A DNA stretch of 64,000 bases from a virus (taxonomy: Duplodnaviria > Caudoviricetes): IMG/VR virus record IMGVR_UViG_3300002055_000003, positions 10,707-74,706 of that record; one strand, given 5' to 3'. The notes beneath the pieces are model-generated. The model had not been told where the DNA came from, did no database searches, and saw only the letters and a program-made list of their open reading frames with translations. How positions within the stretch are numbered: the first letter of the stretch is position 1; the number at the start of each line of letters is the position of its first letter. This document shows positions 9,884-23,143 of this stretch, piece by piece. The translations under genes were made by a program, and so were the position numbers.

Positions 9884-12294
9884 TATCCATTACCCTCTTC
9901 ATATGCTGGGTCAAATCGAGGAGTAAAAAACTTTGGATCATATTCAACATGAATATGATTATTACTAAATCTCCCCGGATAATTTTCATATATAACATCA
10001 TAATCTCTACCGATTCTACGAGATAATGCTCTTGCTATAATACGTCCTTCATCAACTGCAACATTTATATCTGAATTTAGATTATTTGCACGTAAATCAA
10101 TTGCGAAGTTTTTAAAGTGTAGTGATCCTTGACTATGTTTACTATCATTTGCCGACGTTACCACTGGCTTCAATGTTGTATGTTCTTTCCATACTGATAC
10201 AATATCATCAAGAATATTTTCAATCTCTGGTTCTATGTCATCTAATGATTTAGAACCACCAAAACGAACACCACTCTTAAGCCACAAATCAACAGTTGGG
10301 TCAATATTTTCTTGTTCTGCGGGTGATCCAAAAACCCCAACAGGCAAATATGCAATTTTTATACTTCCACCATCTTGATTTGCATCACTTTCAAATTGTG
10401 ATCGATTTACTTCATGTCTAAATTGTGCTTCCTGCTCGTAATCCCTCGCGTTTGTTTGTAATTCTTTTTGTGCAACATCGGCTGGTAATGCAGATGATGC
10501 AGGTAGACTGAATAAATCCAATGTTTGCGTGAATACTCCATCCGAAAAATCATTTATTATTGAAAAAATATTAAAATAACCATCATACCAAAAATCTTTA
10601 ACTCCTGTTAATTCTTTTGTCGAAGGATATTTTATGTTTATTTTTACAAGACCGGGCTTTGCAGCGATGTCAGCAAGACCTGTACTCTCATCTGTTATGT
10701 TTATATTTTCAGCGGAGTAATCATCAGCAAGAGATTCATTCAATAAATTTGGATTGCCAACAATTTTAACTCTAGCTTGAATATTTTCTAGCGCGACATG
10801 TCTTGCTAAATTTTGCTCAAACGATGCATTTGTTAGTTGGTTAATATCATCATTATACATACTCGGTGGTATTGTCATCCCTAAAAACAATGGTGCTCGG
10901 CGCTTTGCTGGAATTTTCTCAGTTCCTGCTGCCTCACTTGCTCTGTAATCAGTTCCACTTCTTGCTGTAATACCATCAGGTGCATTTACACCTTGAATAG
11001 CATCTGCCTGAGTAGATTGCGTTCCTTTGGGAGTTAAATTTGTTTGAAAGAAAGATAAGCCCATATCCATTTTTATATCATAATCAAGAATATCAGTATT
11101 CTTTCCAGTATAAATGTAATCCAGTACTATAAATTCACCCGGTTCAGGTACATAATTACTTCCATAAGGTTGGTAAATAGTTTCATAGCGGCGAATATTA
11201 TATAATATTTGATAGGATACACCATCATCTGGTGGGTCTAGTGTAGTAGCAATTTTTGGTGAATATGAACGACGTGTGTCTTTATTTTCAACACCCTCTT
11301 CTGTAAGAAATTTACATGTCTCCATGACTTTTCTAATACATGTTTCAACTGATGAATTTTCTGAAAATTTTAAAATAAATTCATCACCATCAGCAATTTG
11401 ATTATGTGATTTATTTGTACCTACGATATAATTTCTACCTTGATATACAGGGTCGAGATTAAATTTGTATACAACGTCAGAAAATTTATCAGCAATTAAG
11501 CTATTTGCGCGAGCATCGGAAGCATCTAAATTTGAACTGTTGGCTCGTCTGATATCAGCAGCCAGTTCTGGTATTAACTTTGTTTTAAACTCATTATATT
11601 TTCTAGAAATTTCTGATTCTAATTTTTGTATCGCACTTGATAAAGGTTCTCCCTTTTGAAGTCTAATAGACAATCCATTACCAATAGATGATATTTGCGG
11701 TAGTTTTGAAACACCATTTGATGTTCCAAACAACAATATTTTGTACAAAGACCCACCAGCTTTCATTTCAGCGGTCAAATCTATCATGATGAATGTAAAT
11801 GGTCTTATGTCATCAATTACAACTTGTTCACCATTATCGTTGATACCGACGAAAAATGTTTTTAGTATGAAAACAATTCCAGATGGATCAACGCCTAGTC
11901 TATCAGCTCCTTTTACAAGAACTTCTAAAAATTCAATACCAAATGGTTCTTCAATCACCATTTCACCATCAGTTTCAATTACATCATATTTTGAATCCCC
12001 CAACGGTCCAATTGGAGATAATATTGTTTCCCAACTAACTGATTTAATAAAATAATTTGCGTCTCTTCGACCATCAAACAACACAATATAAAGACCCTGT
12101 TCAGTCCCGCCTTCATCACCGGGGAGTTCTACAGCTTCTACATTGAATAGTAATTCAGGATCATTTGGTTCTGTACTAAACATTTGACTATTATTGGTCA
12201 AACTGTTTGCTGTTTTCATTCCATCACACATAACAAGGGAATGATGAGCCGTATATGATCTAAATTGAGCTAATCTATTTTGTGGATTTGACAT
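9883..12294 (-). CDS. Baseplate hub-like protein with a C-terminal M15/Hedgehog-DD-peptidase-like Zn domain
   Basis: Position between gp53 and the spike; start MSNPQNRLAQFRSYT. C-terminal SANDSKH...SLHFKNFAIDLR (H-x6-D) and NHIHVEYDP (H-x-H). Confidence 0.7.
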   Translation of the reverse strand: MSNPQNRLAQFRSYTAHHSLVMCDGMKTANSLTNNSQMFSTEPNDPELLFNVEAVELPGDEGGTEQGLYIVLFDGRRDANYFIKSVSWETILSPIGPLGDSKYDVIETDGEMVIEEPFGIEFLEVLVKGADRLGVDPSGIVFILKTFFVGINDNGEQVVIDDIRPFTFIMIDLTAEMKAGGSLYKILLFGTSNGVSKLPQISSIGNGLSIRLQKGEPLSSAIQKLESEISRKYNEFKTKLIPELAADIRRANSSNLDASDARANSLIADKFSDVVYKFNLDPVYQGRNYIVGTNKSHNQIADGDEFILKFSENSSVETCIRKVMETCKFLTEEGVENKDTRRSYSPKIATTLDPPDDGVSYQILYNIRRYETIYQPYGSNYVPEPGEFIVLDYIYTGKNTDILDYDIKMDMGLSFFQTNLTPKGTQSTQADAIQGVNAPDGITARSGTDYRASEAAGTEKIPAKRRAPLFLGMTIPPSMYNDDINQLTNASFEQNLARHVALENIQARVKIVGNPNLLNESLADDYSAENINITDESTGLADIAAKPGLVKINIKYPSTKELTGVKDFWYDGYFNIFSIINDFSDGVFTQTLDLFSLPASSALPADVAQKELQTNARDYEQEAQFRHEVNRSQFESDANQDGGSIKIAYLPVGVFGSPAEQENIDPTVDLWLKSGVRFGGSKSLDDIEPEIENILDDIVSVWKEHTTLKPVVTSANDSKHSQGSLHFKNFAIDLRANNLNSDINVAVDEGRIIARALSRRIGRDYDVIYENYPGRFSNNHIHVEYDPKFFTPRFDPAYEEGNG

Positions 12295-18615: not shown

Positions 18616-19290
18616 ATGAACAATATAACGATTTTAATTTCTGGCAAAGGATCAAACATGAAGGCTATTGTAGCCGCGTGTGAAAGTGGTCGGTTAGATG
18701 GCAAGGTTACTACGGTAATAAGCAGCCAAACAGACACACAATTTCAATTAACAAAAGGATGGTGCAACATTCGAGGTATTGAATGTTATCATAATAGACG
18801 TGATTTTTATGATTTTGAATGGATGCAACATGCTATTTTAGATGCTTTAATAGGTTTATCAAAGCCTGATTTAATTTGCCTTGCTGGATATATGAGTATA
18901 TTACCAGCGCATATCGTAGAAAAATACAAGAGAAAAATGATTAATATCCATCCTTCTCTATTGCCCAAATATAAGGGCTTACGCACGCACGAGAGGGCGC
19001 TTGCGAATAAAGATATCAATGATGTCTATCATGGTGCCACAACGCATTTTGTAACTGCTGAGCTTGATTCTGGGCCTATTATCAAACAGAAACTCGTTAG
19101 TAAAGACGTAAATGATACTGTTGAAACATTAAAAGCGAGAGTTAGTAGTATTGAACACGAATTATATATTTCATCAATTGAAGAAATTTTTGAAAAAGGT
19201 ATTGACAAATGCTATGAAGAATGTTTAAATCGGACATTGCCTGAATTATTCAAGCAAAATTTACAAGAATTAGAAAACTTAGACAAATAA
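18616..19290 (+). CDS. purN: Phosphoribosylglycinamide formyltransferase (auxiliary metabolic gene)
   Basis: ILISGKGSN, CLAGYM, INIHPSLLPKYKG (N, H), THFVTAELDSGPII (D): complete GART catalytic set. Confidence 0.9.
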   Translation: MNNITILISGKGSNMKAIVAACESGRLDGKVTTVISSQTDTQFQLTKGWCNIRGIECYHNRRDFYDFEWMQHAILDALIGLSKPDLICLAGYMSILPAHIVEKYKRKMINIHPSLLPKYKGLRTHERALANKDINDVYHGATTHFVTAELDSGPIIKQKLVSKDVNDTVETLKARVSSIEHELYISSIEEIFEKGIDKCYEECLNRTLPELFKQNLQELENLDK

Positions 19291-19435
19291 TAGACATTTA
19301 CTTAGACAAATAATAGACATTATAAGATTAGGCCGAGACATGAGTGCTGAAGAAGAGTAAGCGGGACACTAGCGGGAATATCTTTTTAGACAAATAATAG
19401 ACACCTTAGACAATTATTTAGACAATTACTAGACG
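19277..19435. repeat. Array of TAGACA boxes, including a 22-bp tandem repeat
   Basis: ACTTAGACAAATAATAGACATT at 19277-19298 and 19300-19321. TAGACA at 19280, 19291, 19303, 19314, 19387, 19398, 19407, 19419 and TAGACG at 19430. Confidence 0.9.
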
Positions 19436-19439
19436 ATAT

Positions 19440-19995
19440 ATCACTCACCACGAGTGGTCAGATGAGGGCGATCATTTATTAATCGGTCATTATCAGTGGA
19501 AACTACATAACACTGATCAGGTGCAGTCGAGTTGCAAGGCCCGTTATCGTAACCCATAAAGGATTGGGAGCGTTAATGGATATCCGAAGTAAATTACTGA
19601 TACTGGATACGAACTAAAATTCGTTATCAAATGAGAGTTGTTTTGCTAAGTGGAAGTGTGGGTGAAACAAACACAAATGGCCTATAAATGCGTCCACCAC
19701 TACGTTAAAGTTGAGCCAGATTAATGCACATATCGAATCAACTGGGGAGAAAAAAGTTTTGTCTTAATTATTTAAAGACTAAGACAAATCTAGGATTTAG
19801 AGTTTATTGAAATGTGAGGTACGAACATTGAATAAAAACTCTAAAGTCCTGCATATTGTCAGCGAAGCGGTTAAACAATATGCCATAACTATAAATGTTA
19901 GGCTATTTTAGATTTAAGGGGAATTGCGTCTGGGTTATTTGTAATAGCCACTTCGTGGAGTTGTGATGCATTTTTCTCAGGGAAACCCTTCGAAC
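19440..19995. ncRNA. Candidate structured non-coding RNA (or ssDNA structure) of about 550 nt; strand unknown
   Basis: No ORF of 60 aa or more in an otherwise packed genome. Consecutive stems, e.g. ATCAGTG/CACTGAT, TTTGTCTTA/TAAGACAAA, a ~23-bp imperfect stem at 19793-19849, CATATTGT/ACAATATG, GGCTATT/AATAGCC. Confidence 0.45.
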
Positions 19996-20047
19996 AAATA
20001 CACCAAACTGGAGTTTTTTGATTTAGGGGTTGTGGTAGAATACATTT

Positions 20048-20458
20048 ATGGATAAATTAAAAATAAAACAAGCTATCGTAGTTCGTAATGACTTAAGATC
20101 AAAACTTCGTCATGGAAAACTTGCATCACAAGTTTCACATGCATCAATGGCAGCATTTTTAGATGGGATGAAAATTGAACCGAAACATTCTTCGTGTTTT
20201 CATTTACTCACATTAGAAATGGAACATGCTAGAACTGAATGGATTTCTAACTCATTTACTAAAATAATATTAAGGTGTGATGATGAAGATTCAATCTTGA
20301 GATTGAATGATGAATGTATTAAAGGTCGATATCCACATGCATTAATCACAGATGCAGGAAGAACAGTATTTCAAGAACCAACAATTACATGTCTGGGTAT
20401 TGGTCCACTTCCAGAAGAAATTTTATATCCATTAACAGGCCATTTAAAGTTATATTAA
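20048..20458 (+). CDS. pth2: Peptidyl-tRNA hydrolase, Pth2 (archaeal/eukaryotic-type) family
   Basis: QAIVVRNDL...GKLASQVSHAS, W...KIILR, LITDAGRT...TCLGIGP...LTGHLKLY. Confidence 0.9.
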   Translation: MDKLKIKQAIVVRNDLRSKLRHGKLASQVSHASMAAFLDGMKIEPKHSSCFHLLTLEMEHARTEWISNSFTKIILRCDDEDSILRLNDECIKGRYPHALITDAGRTVFQEPTITCLGIGPLPEEILYPLTGHLKLY

Positions 20459-20494: not shown

Positions 20495-23143
20495 ATGGAA
20501 CTTAATCAAGAAATAGCAAAATACTGGGTAGGTGGTGATGATAAACCGCCTAGAAAGGCTCAAATAGAAGCACTGAATTGGCTTGTCGAAAATAAACACA
20601 AGAAATATTTGTTCTTAGAAGCTCCTGTGGGATGCCATCAAAAGAATACAGATATACTAATGTACGATGGGACTTTTAAAAAAGTTCAGAACATTGTTAT
20701 TGGTGATCAATTAATGGGTCCAGACAGTGAACCGAGGAATGTATTGAGACTAGTATCAGGTGATGATGTTATGTATCGAGTCACACCCACTAAAGGTGAT
20801 TCTTTTGTTGTCAATCAACATCATGTATTGTCTTTAAAAACAACACCAACTGGTAAAGGCGGGTTTCAACATAATAATGATGTGGTGAATATTTCAGTTA
20901 AAGACTTTCTTCAAAAATCAGATTATTTTAAAAATAATATTAAGTTATATAGAACTAATGCTCTCTCATTCCGAGAAACATGCCAATCATCTACAATCGA
21001 TCCTTATTTTCTTGGTATATTACTTGGGGATGGCACTTTACATAATGGTGTTGGTGTTACAACTATAGATGAAGAAATTAAAGAAGTTGTATATGATGAA
21101 GCTCTCAAATATAATCTTCAAGTGAGGATTAATGAAAAAACTGATACAGACGCAGTTACATTATACCTTACATCGGGTTATCTTGGAGGAAGATCGGATA
21201 AAAATCAACTGATTAACGAACTTCAAGAATTAGATTTATATGGAACAAAATGTCATGATAAGTTTATACCTCATGTATACAAGACTGCTTCAATAAAATC
21301 TCGAAGAAGTCTATTGGGTGGTTTAATAGATTCAGATGGTCATCTCAGTACCGGTTGCATTGAAATAGTAAGTAAATCTGAGCGCCTTCTAGATGATATA
21401 ATCTTCATTTGTCGAAGTCTAGGGTTAGCAGCATATAAATCTATTAAAATAGTTAATGATGTCAATTATTTTCGAGTTTCTATTTCTGGTGATATGGAAA
21501 ATATTCCATCAGTTTTAATCAGAAAAACACAGACTAAAAGAAGTCAGAAAAAACGAGTAACTGTCACTGGATTTTCATTAACTGAATTGACAATAGATCG
21601 CTATTATGGATTTACCGTAGATTCTGACAATCTTTATGTGATGGGAGATTTTACAGTAACCCATAATTGTGGTAAATCAATGGTTGGTATGACATTTTCT
21701 CGTTATATGAAAAATCATGCTTATGCACTAACTCCACAAGTTATCTTACAACATCAATATGAAAATGATTTCGAATCAGATAAGACGCTGAACATGGCAT
21801 CTTTATATGGCAAAGCTAATTATACTTGTACAGAAAAGCATGGGTTAAGTTGTGCAGTTGGTTCTGTTGTTAAACCACGTTGTGCCAATTGTCCTTATGT
21901 AAATGCTCGTGATGCTGCTGTTTCTGCCAACAATACTGTTATGAATTATAAAATGGCATTATCCGCATGGAAATACACTAAAATTTTCAAAAAGGATGAT
22001 GAACCAGTTGTTCGCAAATTATCTATTTGCGATGAAGGACATACATTAGAAAATCACTTAGTTGGTTTCGATTCAATACAAATCACTGATAAGTGGTGTA
22101 CGGATCATCTATTACAAATGCCAAATAAAAATACACGAGATATTAAGGTAATGGTAGATTTTCTTCGGTCTGATTATTATTCTTCATTAGTTGAAGCATA
22201 TGATCACTTACTTACTGAAGTTGAATTAATGAAAGGTACAGAAGATGTTCGAATGGTTGCAAAGAAAACAAAAGAATTGAAATTCATAGAGAGTCAAATC
22301 AATACATGCACTTCAATCTTAAAGGCTTCTATGGATGATATTGACCGGGATTATGTTATGGTTGAAACGCAATTTGGTGTTGAATTGAAGCGACTGTATG
22401 GACATTATTCTTTTAAGAACATCATGGAACCCACTGCAAGACAATTTTTGTTTATGTCATCTACATTTCTTGGCAAAAAAGAATGTTGTGATGAATTAGG
22501 ACTGAATCCTGATGATGTTGCGTATATTTCAATTGATTCTGAGTTCGACCCTGATAATCGCCCAGTTGTGTTTATGCCTCGAATGAAAATGAATTATAAG
22601 TGGAAAGATGATTTTAATAAAAAGAATCGAAAAAAGATGATAGATACTATTGTCGAAATTGCAAAAATGCATGAAGGAGAAAATGGCATTATCCACACTG
22701 GAAACTTTGCAATTGCTGAATGGTTGGTTGAAAACCTATCTACTAAAACACATGAGTTGGTACATCACAATCCGGGCACTGAAATGAATCGCAATGAAGC
22801 TATTACATACTTCCTAGACGAATCAACAACACCTGCAATTTTGATTTCGCCTTCCAGTACCGAAGGGCTTGATCTAAAATATGATTTAGGTGGGTTTGCG
22901 ATTTTTGCCAAAATTCCATTTGGAAATATGGGTGATGCATGGATTAAGAAGCGAATGACTATATCAAATGAATGGTATCAGCGACGTGCCATCATTGATA
23001 TTATTCAAGGTTGTGGTCGAATTGTTCGTACTCCTGATGATGAAGGAACAACCTACATACTGGATGAATCGTTTGGTTACTTATACAATCAGAATAAGAA
23101 AATCATTCCGCAATGGTGGAAAGATGCATATCACGAAGTGTAA
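20495..23143 (+). CDS. DinG/XPD-family SF2 helicase with an Fe-S cluster motif, interrupted by an intein
   Basis: Q-motif PRKAQ, Walker A EAPVG|CGKS, four Cys (YTC...SC...RCANCPY), DEGH, MSST, EGLDL, QGCGRIVR. Confidence 0.9.
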   Translation: MELNQEIAKYWVGGDDKPPRKAQIEALNWLVENKHKKYLFLEAPVGCHQKNTDILMYDGTFKKVQNIVIGDQLMGPDSEPRNVLRLVSGDDVMYRVTPTKGDSFVVNQHHVLSLKTTPTGKGGFQHNNDVVNISVKDFLQKSDYFKNNIKLYRTNALSFRETCQSSTIDPYFLGILLGDGTLHNGVGVTTIDEEIKEVVYDEALKYNLQVRINEKTDTDAVTLYLTSGYLGGRSDKNQLINELQELDLYGTKCHDKFIPHVYKTASIKSRRSLLGGLIDSDGHLSTGCIEIVSKSERLLDDIIFICRSLGLAAYKSIKIVNDVNYFRVSISGDMENIPSVLIRKTQTKRSQKKRVTVTGFSLTELTIDRYYGFTVDSDNLYVMGDFTVTHNCGKSMVGMTFSRYMKNHAYALTPQVILQHQYENDFESDKTLNMASLYGKANYTCTEKHGLSCAVGSVVKPRCANCPYVNARDAAVSANNTVMNYKMALSAWKYTKIFKKDDEPVVRKLSICDEGHTLENHLVGFDSIQITDKWCTDHLLQMPNKNTRDIKVMVDFLRSDYYSSLVEAYDHLLTEVELMKGTEDVRMVAKKTKELKFIESQINTCTSILKASMDDIDRDYVMVETQFGVELKRLYGHYSFKNIMEPTARQFLFMSSTFLGKKECCDELGLNPDDVAYISIDSEFDPDNRPVVFMPRMKMNYKWKDDFNKKNRKKMIDTIVEIAKMHEGENGIIHTGNFAIAEWLVENLSTKTHELVHHNPGTEMNRNEAITYFLDESTTPAILISPSSTEGLDLKYDLGGFAIFAKIPFGNMGDAWIKKRMTISNEWYQRRAIIDIIQGCGRIVRTPDDEGTTYILDESFGYLYNQNKKIIPQWWKDAYHEV
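20633..21667 (+). mobile_element. Intein (345 aa), Cys1, with LAGLIDADG homing endonuclease
   Basis: CHQKNTDILMYDG start, block B VNQHHVLSL, FLGILLGDG and LGGLIDSDG, ends TVTHN/C. Removal restores EAPVGCGKS. Confidence 0.92.

Follow-up and report, generated by a model that had tools for sequence, protein, structure and literature searches.

The question raised by this locus is what occupies the long ORF-free gap between purN and pth2 (Table 1) in an uncultured T4-like jumbo phage. The window, that is, the whole 64-kb stretch of DNA that was analysed, makes up most of a 74.7-kb IMG/VR virus record with a CheckV completeness of 22%, and the phage was recognised as a T4-like myovirus from genes encoding a gp20 portal, gp23 capsid, sheath, large terminase, gp55-like sigma factor, Mre11/Rad50 and RuvC. 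The gap is located within a block of recombination and replication genes (Mre11/Rad50, RuvC and a DinG-like helicase), and the conserved part of the gap described below has the same orientation as purN and pth2. A first-pass annotation, made from the letters alone, had proposed that about 550 nt of back-to-back hairpins in the gap constitute either a large structured non-coding RNA in the spirit of GOLLD and ROOL or a structured single-stranded DNA replication origin. Its description of the setting was accurate: the gap lies between purN (TIGR00639) and pth2, what it called the only long non-coding gap is the longest internal ORF-free stretch of the window, and the GC content of 0.40-0.41 at 19400-19700 exceeds the 0.27-0.35 of the flanks.

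No ORF longer than 45 codons stop-to-stop was found in any frame of the gap, and no single reassignment of a stop codon opens a gene, since all three kinds of stop codon occur in every frame; a short ORF, which the annotation had named as an alternative explanation, thus does not account for the gap. The Rfam 15 covariance models, the families of which include GOLLD, ROOL, HEARO, OLE, tmRNA, RNase P, group I and II introns, riboswitches and T-box, gave no match at the gathering score in the whole window, and a search of 19200-20150 with E values up to 10 returned only chance-level matches to snoRNA, miRNA and algC models (E 1.5-8.4). ARAGORN revealed no tRNA or tmRNA gene in the window and, at an 80% score threshold, none in the gap or in the corresponding gap of the relative L013 described below. 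These results are in agreement with the earlier statement that the sequence is not a tRNA, tmRNA or group I/II intron, lend nothing to the suggested kinship with GOLLD and ROOL, and led to rejection of any identity with a known RNA family, tRNA or tmRNA. Two further resemblances were considered and dropped: that to the conserved regions of RNase P RNA had no Rfam signal and no test in its support, and that to a CsrA-type GGA sponge RNA had no Rfam signal and a GGA word count close to chance.

The evidence that part of the gap is functional comes from a relative. Two loci from JGI metagenomes, L013 and L012, were found by a scan with a PTH2 alignment; only five differences separate them over ∼1,130 shared nt, L012 ending at a contig end, and the comparison is therefore between two independent lineages, the window and L013. 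The PTH2 of L013 is 59% identical to that of the window and the gene order is kept, with purN followed by a 593-nt gap, pth2 and the helicase gene. A nhmmer search aligned positions 19386-19804 of the window with L013:1055-1480 (E 8.5e-33). Within this alignment a non-coding core at 19436-19758 has a DNA identity of 70.7% compared with 61.5% for purN and 64.2% for pth2 and, as judged from these two sequences, is conserved more strongly than the neighboring genes. The alignment of the core contains eleven indels that would break a reading frame, with ungapped runs of 15-52 nt, and its mismatches show no 3-periodicity, whereas the mismatches of pth2 are distributed 46/30/71 by codon position. 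Variable segments alternate with near-invariant blocks, which include the 16-mer TTACTGATACTGGATA and 42 nt at 19645-19686. Conservation above that of the flanking genes, the indels and the lack of codon phase indicate that the core is functional non-coding sequence. This conclusion is consistent with the gene density of jumbo T4-like phages, in which a non-coding block of 320 nt that is better kept than the neighboring genes is probably functional. A coding reading was rejected on the grounds of no ORF, no rescue by recoding, no codon periodicity and frame-breaking indels. The remainder of the gap (19759-20047) is 47% identical to L013, approximately the level expected of unrelated AT-rich sequence, which indicates that the 3' part at 19759-19995 is lineage-specific. 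Conservation among relatives, which the annotation had left to be checked, was therefore found for the 5' part but not for the 3' part.

Table 1. Features of the purN-pth2 locus (positions are those of the window).
Feature	Position	Strand	Basis or remark
purN	18616-19290	+	PurN, TIGR00639 158.7 bits vs cut-off 150.1
TTAGACAA-type direct repeat array	19279-19435	+	two 23-nt units, then units spaced 11-12 nt
ORF-free gap	19291-20047		757 nt, between purN and pth2
Conserved non-coding core, candidate structured RNA of ~320 nt	19436-19758	+	nhmmer, identity, consensus fold
5' domain, predicted multi-hairpin junction	19451-19606	+	RNAalifold consensus
9-bp closing helix of 5' domain	19451-19461 with 19597-19606	+	3' strand in invariant 16-mer TTACTGATACTGGATA
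5' domain hairpin	19466-19488	+	consensus structure
5' domain hairpin AUCAGU/ACUGAU	19492-19517	+	first stem of the first-pass annotation
5' domain hairpin GGU-GCAG/UUGC-GCC	19520-19541	+	
5' domain hairpin CCCA/UGGG	19553-19568	+	invariant loop UAAAGGAU
5' domain hairpin	19572-19581	+	consensus structure
Hairpin GAUA-CGAA/UUCG-U-UAUC	19606-19628	+	
Longest nearly invariant block, TAAGTGGAAG.GTGGG.GA.A.AAACACA.ATGGC.TATA	19645-19686	+	alignment
Hairpin GUUGA/UCAAC	19710-19742	+	conserved loop element GCCAGAU
Lineage-specific hairpin run	19755-19995	+	hairpins 19755-19791, 19793-19849, 19852-19882, 19901-19949
TATAAATG box, possible T4-type late promoter for pth2	19890-19897	+	pattern search
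pth2	20048-20458	+	PTH2 (peptidyl-tRNA hydrolase)
DinG-like helicase gene	20495-23143		with intein; next gene after pth2

The secondary structure prediction revealed a multi-hairpin junction that the 5' domain of the core can adopt in the window and in L013 alike. The hairpin at 19492-19517 becomes ACCAGC/GCUGGU in L013 by two double changes from U-A to C-G. In the hairpin at 19520-19541 a double change from G-C to A-U is accompanied by changes from U-G to C-G and from G-U to G-C, and the G-U pairs are possible only on the + strand. The helix at 19553-19568 reads GUCA/UGGC in L013, with one double change from C-G to G-C and one change from C-G to U-G. Immediately after the 5' domain, the hairpin at 19606-19628 has invariant outer strands (GAUA/UAUC), and L013 has GGU/ACC in place of the inner CGAA/UUCG. 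Sliding identity rises to 0.80 in the block at 19645-19686, for which no convincing conserved pairing was found, suggesting that it may be single-stranded or engaged in tertiary or protein contacts. The hairpin at 19710-19742 reads AUUGU/ACAAU in L013, the result of two double changes, and the core ends with a conserved purine run, GGGGAGAAAAAAG, after which no small ORF common to both lineages was found. All of the stems listed in the first-pass annotation exist in the sequence, but most of the long ones (19758-19995) are outside the conserved part. Its stems ATCAGTG/CACTGAT, CCCA/TGGG, ACGAA/TTCGT and AGTTGA/TCAACT are kept in L013 through compensating changes, GTGGA/TCCAC and GTGT/ACAC are kept with the loss of one pair each, TATCC/GGATA is not kept, and those beyond 19758 fall in sequence that does not align with L013.

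Consensus folding energies were compared with those of column shuffles preserving the gap and conservation patterns of the two-lineage alignment. The whole core gave a z of -2.81 on the + strand, a value that none of 200 shuffles equalled, compared with -0.92 on the - strand. The values for the 5' half were -3.77 and -1.47, and for the 3' half, in which there is little conserved pairing, -1.45 and -0.03; the signal peaked in the 100-column window 19475-19572 with -5.16 (+) and -2.94 (-). In coding controls comprising 18 alignment windows of purN and pth2 on both strands, z ranged from -1.34 to +0.74. Thus, in these two lineages, secondary structure is conserved beyond sequence conservation and the signal is specific to the + strand. 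The asymmetry arises because G-U pairs become A-C mismatches on the other strand, and it points to a single-stranded + strand molecule, RNA, rather than to duplex palindromes. RNAalifold predicted 61 pairs on the + strand, and in ten of these both bases differ between the lineages. In the 5' domain each of the 33 pairs can form in either lineage, a count that is partly circular as the structure was derived from the same alignment; two-sided changes account for four of the 33 and one-sided changes for nine, the latter all being G-U exchanges, and two sequences afford no covariation power. Among the helices common to both lineages, four have two or more compensating changes compared to 0.5 expected from conservation-preserving shuffles. 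This count was not used as evidence because it was equally high in a control with meaningless, parallel pairing (3 versus 4 helices; local helices, 2 versus 2).

Folding of single sequences gave modest support. The whole gap folds better than shuffles, but only moderately so, with z values of -2.3 (+ strand) and -2.9 (- strand). Local 120-nt windows gave values of about -2 to -4, and the nearby coding window 18800-18999 likewise has a z of -3.3 on the minus strand. For the conserved core alone the signal is weak, with z -1.63 in the window and +0.29 in L013. The 3' hairpin cluster (19755-20047) gave -2.72, and the 3' part of L013, with hairpins other than those of the window, gave -1.99. The hairpin run at 19755-19995 lies outside the conserved element as delimited by the alignment.

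The core is directly abutted on its 5' side by the array of TTAGACAA repeats, which holds five of the seven copies present in the 64-kb window and forms an evenly spaced cluster of short direct repeats of the type described for T4 oriE. Two 22-nt AGACAAGTAACCAG units are found at the matching place in L013. Two copies of a further direct repeat, AGCGGGA, lie 11 nt apart at 19360-19377 between two TTAGACAA blocks, in a GC-rich insert that is absent from L013. On the other side of the core, the hairpin at 19758-19788 (TTTGTCTTA/TAAGACAAA) is formed by an inverted pair of a word that differs from TTAGACAA by one mismatch, so that repeat-like sites bracket the conserved core. No intrinsic terminator or recognisable promoter bounding the core was found, the promoter search yielding only weak sigma-70-like matches inside the upstream repeats. 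Within the 3' end of purN the sequence TTGACA-17-TTAAAT (19204-19232) is a possible internal promoter from which transcription would run through the repeats into the core, and L013 also has TTGACA at the equivalent position. Between the core and the pth2 start codon are about 290 nt in the window and 205 nt in L013 that are not conserved. The TATAAATG box in this interval is a possible T4-type late promoter of pth2, and the place aligned with it in L013 reads CTCTAAATAT.

The closest gp23 relative in IMG/VR, G005 (gp23 74% identical), has the gene order sigma - gp47 - rad50 - ruvC - helicase - portal, without purN, the element or pth2. The joint presence of these three in the window and L013 and their joint absence in G005 indicate an accessory cassette between ruvC and the helicase gene. 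At the corresponding place G005 has a 584-nt ORF-free gap (L340:10685-11268, minus strand, IMGVR_UViG_3300002054_000006). This gap contains a promoter close to consensus (TTGACA-17-TTTAAT) and ∼430 nt of non-coding, GC-rich DNA, and three tandem repeats of 19 nt (10740-10796) immediately precede the promoter of the helicase gene; the gap has no Rfam match and a fold z of +0.74. The T4-like G009 and G013 likewise have ORF-free gaps of ∼600-650 nt in the ruvC-helicase interval (L343:1999-2655 and L346:345-941) with short tandem repeats, 2 x 11 nt in G009 and 2 x 16 nt in G013. In the gap of G009, ARAGORN at an 80% threshold reported a doubtful tRNA-like fold at positions 238-319. The helicase gene of the window is interrupted at the Walker A motif, between PVG and C, by a Hint/LAGLIDADG intein that is absent at this site in the helicase homologs of L013 (PVGGGKS) and G005 (PVGCGKS).

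The reading that we favor, to which we give about an even chance, is that the core is a new, narrowly distributed structured RNA of about 320 nt encoded on the + strand. The RNA of ∼550 nt put forward in the annotation would accordingly be retained as a non-coding element, most likely a structured RNA, but with its extent reduced to ∼320 nt (19436-19758). The RNA would be made from its own promoter or by processing of a purN-pth2 transcript, with the TTAGACAA repeats perhaps bound by a phage protein that regulates its transcription and the 3' hairpins (19755-19995) perhaps serving as lineage-specific structures of the transcript end or of stability. It may act in trans as a stable RNA that binds protein or provides a scaffold, rather than as a leader, since the unconserved spacer of ∼290/205 nt with its late-promoter-like box separates it from pth2, and it would travel with purN and pth2 as one accessory cassette between ruvC and the DinG-like helicase gene. 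A bolder version, in which the core founds a new class of structured phage RNAs and works with purN and pth2, is unlikely. Such an RNA might be a cofactor, decoy or regulator in peptidyl-tRNA handling or ribosome rescue during infection, carried in a mobile purN-RNA-pth2 cassette of T4-like jumbo phages.

An alternative is that the element acts as DNA, the TTAGACAA repeats binding an initiator or repressor and the core being origin or operator DNA. We regard this as possible although rather unlikely. It is kept alive by the repeats that abut the core and by the recurrence of repeat-bearing gaps beside the helicase gene: the repeats are concentrated upstream of the core at a position conserved in L013, an inverted pair of a repeat-like word closes the core, the locus is inside the recombination and replication block, and the relatives lacking the cassette (G005, G009 and G013) also have repeat-bearing ORF-free gaps in the ruvC-helicase interval. 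However, the GC content of the core is above that of its flanks, unlike an unwinding element, no GC-skew turn was found at the locus, the gaps of the other relatives have no sequence in common with that of the window, and a strand-specific fold signal based on G-U pairs is not what sites in duplex DNA would produce. The role of the repeats at T4 oriE is itself unproven (PMC3016281). In a variant of this explanation the core might be transcribed into an R-loop primer RNA as at the T4 origins, which would also explain the + strand fold signal; the single-stranded DNA origin originally proposed does not suit a T4-like double-stranded DNA phage.

The position of the core upstream of pth2 in the same orientation in both lineages, together with the lack of a strong Shine-Dalgarno sequence at pth2 on direct reading of the sequence, would fit a cis-acting leader of the pth2 mRNA, either riboswitch-like or a protein-binding 5' UTR, controlling pth2 expression. 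This is improbable in view of the unconserved spacer and the late-promoter-like TATAAATG box between the core and pth2; moreover, there was no Rfam riboswitch or leader match and no terminator or anti-terminator was evident. Still less credible is the idea that the region is functionless, the decaying relic of a gene or mobile element since lost, and that its hairpins are fortuitous. This would be consistent with the unconserved 3' part and the modest single-sequence z, but such a relic would not be expected to exceed the neighboring genes in conservation across lineages with ∼60% identical proteins, and there is no trace of a reading frame.

If the core is a structured RNA as we favor, it resembles GOLLD, ROOL, HEARO and OLE in being long, with many hairpins, a GC content above its surroundings, carriage by a phage and an orphan function. 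It matches none of these Rfam models at E values up to 10, is known from two lineages only and, at ∼320 nt, is shorter, RNAs of this class being roughly 300-800 nt. Two stable RNAs connected with tRNA and translation, tmRNA and RNase P RNA, are of similar length, and the core is near a peptidyl-tRNA hydrolase gene, but neither ARAGORN at the 80% threshold nor Rfam gave a tmRNA or RNase P match. Structured primer transcripts of the ColE1 RNA II type are folded, several hundred nt long and made at an origin. By analogy only, such a transcript would unite the RNA and origin readings, although no antisense partner, RNase H site or plasmid-type context is present at the locus. We know of no conserved folded RNA domain at the T4 origins. 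At T4 oriE the 12-nt repeats are evenly spaced and the origin relies on an early promoter, and oriF/oriG are R-loop origins; the likeness of the present locus to these origins lies in the T4-like phage, the even short direct repeats beside a non-coding region and possible transcription, whereas there is no sequence similarity and the promoter and origin activity of the core are putative (PMC3016281).

Should the core be an RNA, it would lengthen the short list of structured RNAs in phages by an unclassified one, and its constant location between purN and pth2 offers a concrete handle on its role. As an origin or operator it would be, for an uncultured T4-like lineage, a rare example of a replication or control element defined by its sequence. 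With only two lineages found, the reach of the element looks narrow and its general importance is limited for now.

Further copies were sought at the nucleotide level. Exact-pattern scans for the core gave chance matches only, as evaluated by nhmmer, in IMG/VR and, among the matches listed, in GTDB genomes. No additional copy beyond L013 and L012 was found by nhmmer in the retrieved loci plus three stretches of G005 or with the covariance model R1 in 14 related or complete jumbo phage records, and the ruvC-helicase gaps of G005, G007, G009, G013 and G014 showed no similarity to the element. Blastn against GenBank phages revealed no similar DNA, and the closest PTH2 from a cultured source is less than 41% identical. 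Single-protein scans of IMG/VR with PTH2 and PurN found no further homolog of the element, and all matches of the PTH2 alignment scan of IMG/VR were of 41% identity or less with no nucleotide match to it. A protein search did identify PTH2 homologs of 60-69% identity (P0002-P0010) on ENA and Logan contigs, and these contigs are the likeliest source of more copies.
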